DNA of 62,828 bases, the filler included, from Globobulimina sp. (taxonomy: Eukaryota), in the NCBI GenBank assembly GCA_003354225.1. It is 16 parts of 16 records of this genome, joined end to end, with 100 filler letters (N's around TTAATTAATTAA, not from the genome) between each part and the next. Parts side by side here need not be neighbours in the genome. Positions count along the whole stretch, not along the records: positions 39,352 to 43,183 come from PIVH01002024.1; 15 more parts are not named here. One strand, written 5' to 3'. The notes beneath the pieces were generated by a model. It searched no databases, was not told the DNA's origin, and saw only the letters and a list, made by a program, of their open reading frames with translations. A program made the position numbers and the translations under genes. Position 1 is the stretch's first letter. Each line of letters begins with the position of its first letter. Positions 3,840 to 59,001 of this stretch are shown one piece after another.

Positions 3840-3939
3840 NNNNNNNNNNNNNNNNNNNNNNNNNNNNNNNNNNNNNNNNNNNNTTAATTAATTAANNNNN
3901 NNNNNNNNNNNNNNNNNNNNNNNNNNNNNNNNNNNNNNN
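3840..3939. other. Artificial contig linker (44 N + TTAATTAATTAA + 44 N), first of 15
   Basis: Identical 100-nt linkers start at 3840, 7778, 11714, 15650, 19585, 23520, 27454, 31388, 35320, 39252, 43184, 47115, 51045, 54974 and 58902. The core gives stops in all six frames. Intervening segments fall in length from 3839 to 3827 nt. Confidence 0.99.
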
Positions 3940-7446: not shown

Positions 7447-7877
7447 GATCAAACCAATTGTTTTCAACACTCAACAGATGGGTTCAACATGTTCAACGTG
7501 CCTGTTTGGGCTCACTTTGATTTAGCAGATATGGATGATTTCTTCTTTAAGAGGAGTTGACATGTTTTATGCGAATGTTACCGTCCAAATCAAAAAGGCA
7601 TATTTGGGCACATGCGTGCAAAATAAAAACCGCTGATATCAATGGCAATGTTGACTATGGTGGTATAAAAAAACACAAAATATCATAGAAATAGAAAGAT
7701 TACTTTGTGACTGTTTTATTGTATATCGAAGTTAAGCCATTACAATATAAATAAGTAAATGTATGTCGGTATATTGTNNNNNNNNNNNNNNNNNNNNNNN
7801 NNNNNNNNNNNNNNNNNNNNNTTAATTAATTAANNNNNNNNNNNNNNNNNNNNNNNNNNNNNNNNNNNNNNNNNNNN

Positions 7878-39351: not shown

Positions 39352-40529
39352 TTGTTAAGGTCAATGATTTTAAATTTACAAAATTATAAAAATGATATAA
39401 TGGATGATTTTGAATATTAATATTTCTTTTTCTGCCCCAAAGTCTCAGCCGAGATGATTTAGCCACCATATTACAGTCAATATGCTCCAATGTATTGTGA
39501 TAATATGTTTTTTTAAATATTTTCCAGTCAAAGTCACTATCATCCTCAACAGTGCCCTGTCTATAAACGCGAGGGTTTGGCAATACAAATGATGTTAAAT
39601 TGGGTAAGTTCATGCAAAACATATCATATTTTTCCCTCCAAAATGTGCGTCTGCCCCAAACCGCCAATTGTGACGGAACATAAATTACTTTTGTGACAGA
39701 CTGAAATACATTTTGTGTCGAGTTTTTATTCATTTTGACAGAATTCATCCATTCCAAGATGTGACCCGTATGTCCATAAGGACTGTCTGGCTGACTGCTG
39801 GTCAATATCTTCGATCTAAAGCGCGAATATTGCAAATTATATGAAATTGTGTGTAATAATGGTGATTTTGATAATATTTTAGAAATAATTGAATAATATT
39901 CATCCGCAAATTGCTCGTAATGACCATCGTGTTTTAATACGTATTTTAATTCTATATATTGTGCATTATAATATTTTTTATAATTAACAGTTTTGAGATA
40001 TAATGATTTGACGAATTGATGGTCAATAACGAGATGATATTTTGACATTGCAATCTGAGAAAATTTGTATAAATCTTTTGATATTAATTCAAACTTTATC
40101 CTATCGCTCATATTGCTGAATGACATAATATAGGAACCGATCGATGTTGGTATTGATATGAATGCATTATTTTGATTCGCTTTGTTGTTGTTCTTGGTGC
40201 TGTTGATAAAATATTGTTTAATATGATTTGTATGATGTTGTATTTTATGCTCGCGATCATCATTCTGTTTTGTCATTTTATTTTAAATTCTGAATTGTAG
40301 ATATTTGTAATGGATCGATGGACTTAACCGTTTGATGAAACCATATTTTATCGATCAGTTGCTTCCATTCAGGATTTGACTGTGTTATCGATGTAAATGT
40401 TAAATCTTTAAGATCTGTAATACTCATTGATGATAAACAAGACATTAATGTTTTTTTTGAACATGATTTGATATTATTTAGAATATTGGCTGTTTGGATG
40501 GCATCTAAAGGGTCAGCCATATCTGCCAT
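39352..40529 (-). CDS. F-box-like protein with LRR-like C-terminus; homopolymer frameshift near 40280; truncated at the 3' end
   Basis: ISIPTSIGSYIMSFSNMSDRIKFELISKDLY resembles an F-box. Deleting one base from the 4-nt homopolymer near 40281-40284 fuses ORF 40278-40529 (MADMAD) to the ORF starting at 40276. Confidence 0.55.
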
Positions 40530-40587
40530 GTTTACAGAACGGGCCGTTAAAAATATTACGTAATTCAACAACAGTAATTCCCTAAAC

Positions 40588-42720
40588 ATGGCAACCACAA
40601 TTCACAAATTGATAGAAGAAGGCTTCAGTTTGGAAGAGGCAAAAATGGCAATAAATCTAAGCATGGAAGACAATGCTGAAGAATCGAAGAATGAATCAAT
40701 GTTTTGTGGTGGCAATATCACTCAGTGTCCAAATCTGCGCAGGTTATGTCAGTCAATGAGCGGATATACAAAATGGATTAATATTCGTGAGATGGATCCC
40801 GAGTTTGATGCACTGAATGATTTTCTCCATTTAATGAAGAAACATCACAAAGACACAGAATTTGATTACATTTATTCTCAATTAGGCGGGCTATGCGATG
40901 TTAAACAATGTAAAATCCATCAAAGAAATTATAGATCGAAGAGTTGTAAAAACAACAACAATATCAATCAAATGATAATGGTTCAACAACAGATTATGGA
41001 TAAAATACATTGTTTTTACACTCATAGTTATGACATTGGACACAGATTAACTTTATCCGACAAACAATTCATTGCAGAATCTATTACAGCTACAGACAAT
41101 GACTCTTCTTTGGCGAATAAACGATTAATGAAAATTAAAAATATACTCTCGAAAAGACACAAGTTATTTGACTCTGTTTATGCTGAAAATAGGACCCGTA
41201 ATTTTGGTAAATTCCATCTCAATGTCGACAATTTTGGGGGTTTTAATGAATCTCAGTCGGATGAAAAAACACAAGTTGCTCCAGAACAATATCAATTTGA
41301 TTTGAATCAAACGTATAGCTATGGACATATATTCGAATATAAGTCATTAAGCTCAGCACTGATGTCAATGGGCAATGTGCTTCCGAGTGCAGTTACAAAT
41401 AATGATAATAAAATTAATTATAATTCCACCATCACTCAGTGGGATATACTGAAACCAAACTTTGCTGGCACTGTATTTAACAAATACCGGTCGTTTAAAC
41501 AGGAACTACTTTCAAACCAATTATCAACAATAAATATTCAACAATTCCAAAACGAACATAAAAAGGCAAAGATGCATTTTCATTCGTTTTATTGTAAAGA
41601 GTTTGCAGCAAATTACGAGAAAAGGTTAAACCAAGCAACGTATGGTCCAATTCAAATATTATCTGTCCATCATCTGTTATCAGTAATGCTTTATTGTAAT
41701 TACGATTATCTACAATACGAATTCAGCAAAACCTACAGAAAAGTGTCTAAAAACGAATCCAATGAGTCATTGGTTAAACGGCATTCCAATTTTTATTTTT
41801 TAGCGAAATATCTGTGGCAATCTGTCAATCATTTTGGTACAACCATTCAAAATGGCAGAATACAATCGTTTTATCATGGAATAAGCCAAAAGTTGAGCTT
41901 TCCAGCGATTGTTGGCAACATTGGTCTGGGCGTGGAAATGTATTGTCCTTTATCGACCTCAGCAGCGTATGAAGTCGCTGTTAATTTTGCGAATTATACT
42001 GGATTGGTCATAGAGTTTAGAAATGGAGATTTTTTGATGTCGAGCAAGTATTTTGCTGCTGATTGGCTATCAGATTATGGCAATGAGTCTGAATACTTAT
42101 TCATTCAAAATAATCATGTTTTGAGAATGCATAATATTATCGACATAACCACTGGCTGTCAGTACAAAATTATTTTGAGAGCTATAAAGAAAATATATGA
42201 AATATTGAGAAATTCCGCAAAAACAAAATGTAGCAAAGAAGAGTCATTGGTGATGGAGAAGTTAATACATCATCAATTATCATTATATTTGGAGCAATAT
42301 CCAAAATGGCATAGTTTGAGAGAATATGGAAAGGAATTAATGAATGTGTTTTGTAGTAATACAGTGGAAATAAGACTTATTTGGGGTTATTTTAAAACAA
42401 ATCAGCATTTATTTGAAATGTTTGCATGTACAGATTGTGAGTGGATTGACATGAAAGTAATCAATGTATTATTTCCAAATATTGGTAAAATTGTGATAAA
42501 GGATGTAATGTTGACTTATGTGACAATGAATAATATTTTAATGCATTTAACAAAATACAAACAATCAAAATTAAAAACTATAGAGATAGAAATTGCAGAG
42601 GACAGTATATTGTCTCTCAAACAGACTGTCTCTGAGTATACGGACAAGTTTAATGTTCTACATTTCAATGTTAGTAATGACAAAATTAATATTTTGCGTA
42701 TTATCTATGATGCCAATTAA
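40588..42720 (+). CDS. UBA-like + Cys/His module + ADP-ribosyltransferase-like (ARTC fold, H-S-E) protein
   Basis: N-terminal IHKLIEEGFSLEEAKMAI; FYHG (41869-41880); LSTSAAYEVAVNFA (STS 41953-41961); LSDYGNESEYLFI (E-x-E 42085-42093). Single exon. Confidence 0.65.
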   Translation: MATTIHKLIEEGFSLEEAKMAINLSMEDNAEESKNESMFCGGNITQCPNLRRLCQSMSGYTKWINIREMDPEFDALNDFLHLMKKHHKDTEFDYIYSQLGGLCDVKQCKIHQRNYRSKSCKNNNNINQMIMVQQQIMDKIHCFYTHSYDIGHRLTLSDKQFIAESITATDNDSSLANKRLMKIKNILSKRHKLFDSVYAENRTRNFGKFHLNVDNFGGFNESQSDEKTQVAPEQYQFDLNQTYSYGHIFEYKSLSSALMSMGNVLPSAVTNNDNKINYNSTITQWDILKPNFAGTVFNKYRSFKQELLSNQLSTINIQQFQNEHKKAKMHFHSFYCKEFAANYEKRLNQATYGPIQILSVHHLLSVMLYCNYDYLQYEFSKTYRKVSKNESNESLVKRHSNFYFLAKYLWQSVNHFGTTIQNGRIQSFYHGISQKLSFPAIVGNIGLGVEMYCPLSTSAAYEVAVNFANYTGLVIEFRNGDFLMSSKYFAADWLSDYGNESEYLFIQNNHVLRMHNIIDITTGCQYKIILRAIKKIYEILRNSAKTKCSKEESLVMEKLIHHQLSLYLEQYPKWHSLREYGKELMNVFCSNTVEIRLIWGYFKTNQHLFEMFACTDCEWIDMKVINVLFPNIGKIVIKDVMLTYVTMNNILMHLTKYKQSKLKTIEIEIAEDSILSLKQTVSEYTDKFNVLHFNVSNDKINILRIIYDAN

Positions 42721-42778
42721 TGGTTTTTGTTTTATATGTTTCGGAGAATTGTTGTCTAAGTTTTACAACTAAACATTC

Positions 42779-43183
42779 ATGGCATATACAGGGCCACCAC
42801 GTCCTCCCCATTTTTCCAATTCACGCAGGCAACCACAGGCAATACCGAGTCGATACGTTGCAAATACAAATACTGCAATAGAAGACATTGATGCATCGCC
42901 AAATAACGGGACATCTGGTTTGTTGACAATACTGTTAATCAGTTTAACTGCATTAATACTGATAATTGCGTTGAGTGTTGGTGGATATTTTTTATTCCGA
43001 CATGTTAAAGTTAAACACAAAAATGATGGTAGCGGTACATCAAAGAATGACGAAATAGGTATATTCTCATTATATATCCGTGCATACCTATACTAGCATA
43101 AGTAAATAAAGTAAATAAAGCAAGCCCAGTTATACCAGGCACTGCCTCTACTAATGAATATATATCGCAATCGTCTGACTCCA
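42779..43183 (+). CDS. Single-pass membrane protein, 5' fragment
   Basis: TM LLTILLISLTALILIIALSVGGYFLF followed by RHVKVKHK. Intron-like GT near 43059. Confidence 0.5.
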
Positions 43184-58901: not shown

Positions 58902-59001
58902 NNNNNNNNNNNNNNNNNNNNNNNNNNNNNNNNNNNNNNNNNNNNTTAATTAATTAANNNNNNNNNNNNNNNNNNNNNNNNNNNNNNNNNNNNNNNNNNN
59001 N

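Follow-up and report, generated by a model that had tools for sequence, protein, structure and literature searches.

What does the reading frame at positions 40588..42720 encode in the 62,828-nt stretch of Globobulimina sp. DNA analysed here (the window; assembly GCA_003354225.1)? And if, as a preliminary description of the sequence proposed, its product is an ADP-ribosyltransferase (ART) in which the arginine expected of its clade has given way to histidine, is that product likely to be an active enzyme? The open reading frame (ORF) runs without interruption on the + strand from an ATG start, specifying 710 amino acids (the protein is here called P0001) and a stop codon. All the motif strings quoted in that description could be located in its translation (F428-Y-H430-G431, L455-S456-T-S458-AAYEVAVNFA, G472-LVIEF and W493-LSDYGN-E500-S-E502-YLFI), as could IHKLIEEGFSLEEAKMAINLS at the N-terminus and the Cys/His-rich stretch. 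As modelled, the core of P0001 has an ART fold of the ARTC/R-S-E type, and we lean, with fair though far from full confidence, towards regarding P0001, apparently a cytosolic protein of several domains with a histidine on strand 1 of its ARTC/R-S-E-type core, as an intracellular mono-ADP-ribosyltransferase that is active. It belongs to a very large, seemingly undescribed and apparently foraminiferal family. The features on which the argument turns are these:

41305..42234, + strand: predicted ADP-ribosyltransferase-fold domain (residues 240-549), a helical lobe and a split beta-sheet core
41869..41880, + strand: strand 1 motif F428-Y-H430-G431, on strand 428-432 of the model (G431 in 164/164 aligned instances)
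41953..41961, + strand: S456-T-S458, ending strand 455-458 and followed by helix 461-468 (S456 in 164/164)
42085..42093, + strand: E500-x-E502, closing the loop ahead of strand 5 (502-505; both Glu in 164/164)

How good is the evidence for the fold? AlphaFold2 models were obtained both for the full-length protein (predicted local distance difference test score, pLDDT, 79.3; predicted template modelling score, pTM, 0.79) and for residues 295-549, the latter built on 71 sequences (pLDDT 94.1, pTM 0.89). A Foldseek comparison of the domain model with the Protein Data Bank (PDB) gave rat ART2.2 as the best match (E 3.1e-5, probability 1.00), and all the matches listed were ART-fold proteins. VIA-align, which is independent of Foldseek and was applied to 48,161 chains, also put ART2.2 first (Z 12.7 over 176 residues, root-mean-square deviation 3.2), followed by XopAI (Z 11.7), 6drh (11.0), HopU1 (10.9) and ExoS (9.6). 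Its top 17 rows, from Z 12.7 down to 6.8 (SpvB), were named ADP-ribosyltransferases throughout, which we take to be members of the R-S-E clade, and C3-, iota-, VIP2-, Certhrax- and SidE-type enzymes came further down. The first match to the H-Y-E clade was diphtheria toxin (Z 6.8 over just 96 residues), with PARPs at Z 4.4-4.7. The ranking was unchanged when the full-length model was used, in which the alignment to ART2.2 spans residues 240-525 of P0001. In the domain model it spans residues 295-517 (model positions 1-223) and takes in helices 303-414, so an N-terminal helical lobe like that of ART2.2 is present; a disordered insert occupies residues 262-287 of the domain. At the level of fold, then, the predicted split beta-sheet core matches those of solved ARTs, and the ARTC/R-S-E kind of domain proposed from the sequence was returned by predicted structure and by both fold searches.

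Comparisons of sequence gave a different picture. No Pfam family matched P0001 at E<=10, and no ART was reached in the PDB either by phmmer (with P0001, P0155 or P0093 as query) or by a profile of the family; the assignment of P0001 to the ARTs therefore rests on structure and conservation. The sole ART-clan Pfam model approached by any family member scanned was PF01129: three of 70 members came below its threshold (18.1-20.4 bits, against a cut-off of 22.3), the best being P0155, residues 248-436 of which align with profile positions 18-192 of 222 (E 3.5e-4, 20.4 bits), and P0001 itself does not attain the gathering score. HHalign of the family alignment against the T4 proteins ModB (P 0.039, probability 1.3%) and ModA (probability 0.3%) was not significant; the sole ModB block aligned in that non-significant comparison sets FYHGIS on LYRGIS, a pairing consistent with the modelled topology.

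ART active sites are divided into two main clades, H-Y-E and R-S-E, in PMC3482391. P0001 has features of both: its strand 1 carries the His-Gly of the H-Y-E clade (H430-G431) and not the Y-R-G arginine of the R-S-E clade, and where the H-Y-E clade has a Tyr-containing second motif P0001 has S-T-S, which is followed by a helix and then by E-x-E leading into strand 5, as in the R-S-E clade. (Further strands of the model are 473-479, 487-490 and a final 512-519, and the loop at 491-501 carries WLSDYGNE.) The arrangement and placement of the three motifs are those of Arg, STS and ExE in R-S-E enzymes. How far this combination is a property of the family can be judged from 166 instances of the ART domain in 159 proteins, 164 of which could be aligned at the motif columns. 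Although the mean pairwise identity of these domains is 42% (5th-95th percentile, 31-50%), six columns, and only six, are fully invariant: G431, S456, G472, S495, E500 and E502. T457 is kept in 161/164, and position 458 is Ser or Thr in 163/164. Position 430 is His in 160 of the 164, Arg in two, and Asp and Phe in one each. Chance cannot account for a pattern as strong as this. Thus the three points made about the motifs from one sequence (His in place of the clade Arg, with STS and E-x-E intact) hold across the family, and the suggestion that they would be conserved among homologues has been upheld. STS and ExE are retained in both natural Arg versions (FYRGV in P0130, FFRGL in the first of the two ART domains of P0034), which speaks for residue 430 as the positional equivalent of the clade Arg. 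The P0034 copy combines its strand 1 Arg with a divergent loop (LFSAFKNEQERLFF), and P0034 is one of five proteins that have two tandem ART domains (the others being P0032, P0033, P0086 and P0138).

From the topology match we infer that H430, S456 and E502 line one cleft. The helical lobe also has near-invariant positions, in the stretches Y369-C-N371 and F379-S-K-T-Y-R384 and at H399 (41692-41784): among 163 aligned instances, Y369 is found in 160, C370 in 152, N371 in 158, R384 in 150 and H399 in 157. It is a speculation of ours that R384 might be a displaced NAD+-contacting arginine (NAD+, nicotinamide adenine dinucleotide) that compensates for the histidine at position 430.

How might such a protein work? 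P0001 would presumably use NAD+ for the mono-ADP-ribosylation of protein side chains. His-Gly, STS and the helical lobe would hold NAD+, E502 would act as the catalytic base, E500 would favour arginine acceptors, as in ExE enzymes, and a single ADP-ribose would be transferred to the protein side chain. Within the R-S-E clade, E-x-E marks the arginine-specific enzymes, so that, by analogy, arginine is probably the acceptor. A variable N-terminal adaptor would bring the enzymes of the family to their targets (in P0001 the adaptor would be the degenerate remnant described below), and the Cys/His zinc module and the C-terminal alpha/beta domain probably act in the recognition of substrates or ligands, or in regulation. 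An intracellular setting agrees with the absence of a signal peptide, as had been noted earlier: read directly, the N-terminus is MATTIHKLIEEGFSLEEAKMAINLSMEDNAEES, and the first 33 residues include no hydrophobic stretch, so that the signal peptide and extracellular or glycosylphosphatidylinositol (GPI)-anchored state of ARTC ecto-enzymes find no parallel here.

How large is the family, and where does it occur? A word-seeded search gave 30 homologues of P0001 (E 2.5e-94 to 1.7e-28), which are 23-38% identical to it in their best local alignments and mostly cover 87-98% of its length; the closest relatives of P0001 are only about 30-37% identical. An exhaustive profile search over 1.84 billion cluster representatives extended the family to 5,963 representatives at E<=1e-3, of which 4,181 fall at E<=1e-10 and 2,118 at E<=1e-30. 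The homologues are transcriptome predictions, which may include chimeras. Of the 29 distinct homologues looked up, 26 are labelled in EukProt as coming from Bolivina argentea or Nonionella stella, both benthic foraminifera, in keeping with the proposal of a protist family. That the family might be undescribed also seems justified, as no Pfam model reaches threshold and our literature search found no account of such a foraminiferal family or of its fusions (though earlier reviews may mention them). The members have in common a core in which the ART domain is preceded by a Cys2His2 module in two copies and followed by a C-terminal alpha/beta domain that is possibly like a leucine-rich repeat (LRR), and the N-terminal additions differ from member to member. 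In P0001 the last part of this core is:

42235..42708, + strand: C-terminal alpha/beta repeat domain (residues 550-707), with alternating strand-helix units in the full-length model

In VIA-align comparisons this domain matched the LRRs of KDM2A/KDM2B, TIR1, COI1, RNase inhibitor and the LRR of NLRP1 at Z 4.8-6.1, with Rossmann methyltransferases scoring about equally, and Pfam LRR models found no match on P0001. On the model, it may be a short F-box/RNase-inhibitor-type LRR. The nearest language-model neighbours of P0001, which are ESM Atlas clusters of ART + LRR_6 proteins from rotifers and haptophytes, scored 0.76-0.77, and are leads only, since by the tool's own calibration such scores (below 0.8) are no more than that.

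The size of the family and the character of its C-terminal domain bring up another interpretation, that P0001 is an NAD+ hydrolase (NADase), in which the sensing of ligands by LRR-like or adaptor parts triggers cleavage, the proteins forming a diversified receptor repertoire of immune-like or death effectors. Such a role would suit a family with so many and such divergent members and an LRR-like domain; moreover, one member (P0133) is fused to a Development-and-Cell-Death domain (E 9.4e-24), the ART-fold NADase Tne2 (6b12) is among the fold matches (Z 4.6), and loss of the Arg could conceivably shift the balance of activities. However, the invariant E-x-E pair and the loop ahead of it, which contains S495, resemble the loop by which transferases recognize their substrates, the best fold matches are to transferases that modify proteins, and the LRR-type matches of the C-terminal domain are no better than those to Rossmann methyltransferases. 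We therefore consider the NADase interpretation unlikely, and return to the mono-ADP-ribosyltransferase to ask what its N-terminal parts may contribute. The most N-terminal feature is:

40591..40689, + strand: UBA-like remnant (residues 2-34), with helices 1 and 2 and an EGF loop between them

The preliminary description saw here a UBA-like domain, and this could be sustained for two helices out of three. Residues 4-27 take in the first helix, a Gly-Phe/Tyr loop and the second helix, and when compared with a profile drawn from five UBA domains of the family they score 15.0 bits, a value reached by none of 1000 shuffled sequences (maximum 8.9); but the hydrophobic third helix of the relatives (NIxxAVxYL) has no counterpart in P0001, where residues 28-38 are polar (EDNAEESKNES), and Pfam UBA (PF00627) does not match the N-terminus. 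The best natural PDB matches of this segment are three entries for the Cbl-b UBA domain, at E about 1, and in the full-length model it appears as one long helix (15-34; pLDDT 56-73). To judge from its sequence, the N-terminus of P0001 is a degenerate two-helix UBA remnant, and whether it could bind ubiquitin on its own is doubtful, given the absent third helix, the lack of a Pfam UBA match and the E value of the Cbl-b match.

Modules of this kind recur in some other members of the family. When 158 homologues were compared with Pfam (thresholds E<=1e-4 or E<=3e-3), 37 proved to have an accessory domain, and in 26 of these 37 it was a module linked to ubiquitin, p97 or the proteasome:

PUB: 12 proteins, just 2 of them above the Pfam gathering score
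UBA: 5 proteins
PITH: 4 proteins
RanBP2-type zinc finger: 2 proteins without any other ubiquitin, p97 or proteasome module
USP/UCH: 1 protein
RING: 1 protein
Skp1-POZ: 1 protein

The other 11 have Kelch/EGF (two proteins), SAM, MYND, CCCH, bromodomain, YEATS, RhoGEF, ankyrin, C1 or DCD domains.

Between the N-terminal segment and the ART domain lies the Cys/His-rich part of P0001, to which the preliminary description could assign no family:

40705..41082, + strand: helical Cys/His module (residues 40-165), family-specific, with two copies of one ligand pattern

The pattern is C40-x6-C47-x33-H81-x4-H86 in the first copy and C103-x4-C108-x32-H141-x4-H146 in the second. All four residues of the second copy are present in 159/159 instances; in the first, C40 is kept in all 118 instances aligned there, C47 in 136/159, H81 in 133/159 and H86 in 139/159. 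In the full-length model, the pLDDT of the module is mostly 80-91. No Pfam family matched it on P0001, and a search of the ESM Atlas with the module alone gave no usable match. From the ligand pattern we regard the segment as a duplicated Cys2His2 module, in which two zinc sites are predicted.

Could DNA or RNA be held by this module and offered to the ART domain, so that nucleic acid, and not protein, is what becomes ADP-ribosylated? A two-site Cys2His2 module does stand beside the catalytic domain in every member examined (159 instances), CCCH fingers, a bromodomain or a YEATS domain occur in some members, and the fold matches include ART-fold enzymes whose substrates are nucleic acids (Scabin, Z 6.3; Tpt1/KptA, Z 5.6-6.4). 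Against this, the closest structural relatives (ART2.2, XopAI, HopU1, 6drh and ExoS) are ARTs that act on or bind proteins, the modules most often fused to the family are protein-binding ones from the ubiquitin system, and the zinc module has no similarity detectable in Pfam or the Atlas to known nucleic-acid-binding fingers; we judge this interpretation very unlikely. That P0001 is a pseudoenzyme, an ART fold kept as a binding or scaffold domain after loss of the defining Arg had abolished catalysis (as proposed for LRRC9-type proteins, an LRR-flanked eukaryotic ART-like family called 'most likely pseudoenzymes' in PMC7955679), is just as improbable, because exactly the catalytic residues S456, E500 and E502 are invariant in 164/164 domains of 42% mean identity, which is not expected of a dead site, and because a His-Gly pair is what H-Y-E enzymes have at their own catalytic site.

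Several considerations nevertheless weigh against an active, R-S-E-type mono-ADP-ribosyltransferase with connections to the ubiquitin system. The Arg that defines the clade is missing in P0001; searches by sequence connect it neither to a Pfam family nor to a known ART; the structural models derive from the alignment of the family itself; and the clustering of the predicted H/S/E residues is read from the topology match alone. On the side of the ubiquitin system, the UBA segment of P0001 is without its third helix, 121 of the 158 family proteins have no accessory Pfam domain, 10 of the 12 PUB matches lie below the Pfam gathering score, and P0082, which includes a pyruvate-oxidoreductase part, may be a chimera; the connection between the family and that system is statistical and uneven. 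Finally, in a variant of the gene from another study (described below) only 14 of 30 listed substitutions are synonymous, which suggests that the constraint on the N-terminal half is moderate.

Is the ORF a real gene? The window was put together artificially from 16 contigs of 3,827-3,839 bases each, ordered from longest to shortest and separated by spacers of the form N44-TTAATTAATTAA-N44 (positions 3840-3939, 7778-7877 and onward to 58902-59001). The sole physical context of the ORF is therefore 39352..43183; gene order across the spacers is meaningless, and ORFs that end in X-runs have been cut by contig ends. That the ORF is nonetheless a real gene is supported by the contigs of separate studies and by a variant that keeps the frame. 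Thus, 93% of sampled words of the ORF are present in contigs of runs from two independent studies, with 0-3 differences from it over long pieces, and the runs of a third study contain a variant that is about 95% identical, in which the frame is kept by a +1/-1 pair ten bases apart together with a 6-nt insertion. None of the runs that contain the gene is recorded as RNA, although X6 and X7 may be. The 30 substitutions listed for the N-terminal half of this variant are a partial sample (73 further differences lie outside it); 16 of them are at third codon positions, 14 are synonymous, as mentioned, and none touches a predicted ligand residue.

Some further observations concern the surroundings of the gene. 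One contig from each of two separate studies (record 2 of X1, record 19 of X7) starts at 40564-40565, 23-24 bases before the ATG, which hints weakly at the 5' end of a transcript; the X1 contig carries an adapter-like loose end there, and an X2 contig continues uninterrupted across the site. On the minus strand, 39353-40276 and 40281-40529 are adjoining ORFs in different frames, divergent from the ART gene, with about 58 bases separating the likely start codons; the two may belong to a single gene interrupted by a frameshift or small intron, and the downstream member is cut by the contig end. Right after the stop codon of the ART gene, at 42752-42900, the summed contig depth in runs X6 and X7 rises from about 7-18 to about 160-240. 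This interval is covered by separate short contigs and overlaps a 105-amino-acid ORF (42779-43096) that has a hydrophobic stretch; a repeat, or some highly represented sequence, could account for it. No Pfam family was matched by the ORFs that adjoin the ART gene on its contig. A search with the family profile found a single copy of the family in the window; on a different contig (24239-24589, + strand), 36 residues match the first helix of the ART profile (QF..K.HF...C) at 13.8 bits, probably by chance, or possibly as a fragment of a paralogue. A scan of the locus for bacterial promoters and terminators gave only background levels, the models being bacterial and irrelevant to a eukaryotic host.

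What do these findings mean? The family is a large natural one that joins the His-Gly of the H-Y-E clade with the STS and ExE of the R-S-E clade on an ARTC-type scaffold, and its rare Arg paralogues offer a natural test of the role of the strand 1 residue in NAD+ binding and the choice of acceptor. It ranks among the larger uncharacterized protein families of a major and genomically neglected protist group, and it also defines a two-site Cys2His2 module without a counterpart in Pfam or the Atlas. The fusions to PUB, UBA, PITH and NZF-type domains point to cross-talk of ADP-ribosylation with ubiquitin, p97 and the proteasome outside animals and outside host-pathogen settings. At its most ambitious, the proposal would be that foraminifera possess a massively diversified set, specific to their lineage, of cytosolic 'H-S-E' ARTs that write arginine-ADP-ribose on ubiquitin or on components of the p97/proteasome pathway as part of an innate-immunity-like or conflict system, with the duplicated CCHH segment as a new zinc-binding recognition domain. 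We think it distinctly unlikely that all of this will prove right; if the ubiquitin/p97-directed part were true, then ARTs directed at ubiquitin, of which bacterial effectors have so far supplied the examples, would have in this family an endogenous counterpart among eukaryotes.

It remains to compare the P0001 family with known systems. LRRC9-type pseudo-ARTs resemble P0001 in combining a eukaryotic ART-like domain with LRR-type repeats, and in the abstract of PMC7955679 the active site of LRRC9 is described as divergent and not clearly detectable. We considered LRRC9 as a possible member of the same family and rejected it, since the active-site motifs of P0001 are invariant whereas that site is, by this description, indistinct. 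AACRNL, which is diphtheria-toxin-like according to the abstract of PMC12957317, was also rejected. The H-Y-E clade itself (diphtheria toxin, PARPs) shares with P0001 the strand 1 His-Gly and a catalytic Glu entering strand 5, but differs in the second motif (Tyr-containing, as against STS) and gives clearly weaker fold matches. The rotifer and haptophyte ART + LRR_6 proteins, to which the name 'NAD(P)(+)--arginine ADP-ribosyltransferase' has been given automatically, join PF01129 to LRRs of the RNase-inhibitor type, an arrangement which resembles that of the ART and C-terminal alpha/beta domains of P0001; these clusters pass the Pfam ART model, whereas the P0001 family does not.

The mono-ART domain of the Legionella SidE family (5zq2, 9fgm) has an R-S-E-type fold and matches P0001 at Z 7.7 and 6.1, more weakly than does ART2.2. 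It is an ExE enzyme that ADP-ribosylates Arg42 of ubiquitin. There is a functional analogy in the repeated fusion of the P0001 family to ubiquitin-system modules, although no counterpart of the phosphodiesterase partner domain of SidE was detected in P0001 by Pfam, and by this analogy one might speculate that ubiquitin is a target of the family. Closer in structure are the bacterial R-S-E effectors XopAI (6kly), HopU1 (3u0j), 6drh and ExoS (6gn0), with Z 9.6-11.7 over 170-187 residues (6drh is presumably the Tre1-Tri1 pair, its entry title saying only 'ADP-ribosyltransferase toxin/immunity pair'). STS and ExE-type motifs are features of this effector clade. The effectors, however, are secreted or injected bacterial proteins with Arg on strand 1, whereas the P0001 family, with His in that position, is endogenous to eukaryotes and comprises thousands of paralogue clusters.

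The best structural match in both fold searches was to the vertebrate ecto-ARTs (ARTC, PF01129), represented by rat ART2.2 (1gxy). Ecto-ARTs consist of one domain, contain disulfides and are either secreted or anchored by GPI, unlike P0001, which is, on direct reading of its N-terminus, without a hydrophobic segment there, and which appears to be cytosolic and multidomain, its zinc module and C-terminal domain having no counterpart in ecto-ARTs. Yet even though the two proteins are only 13% identical in the structural alignment, and P0001 has His for the strand 1 Arg, the same helical lobe precedes the beta core in both, and the motifs follow one another in the same order, from the strand 1 motif through STS to ExE.

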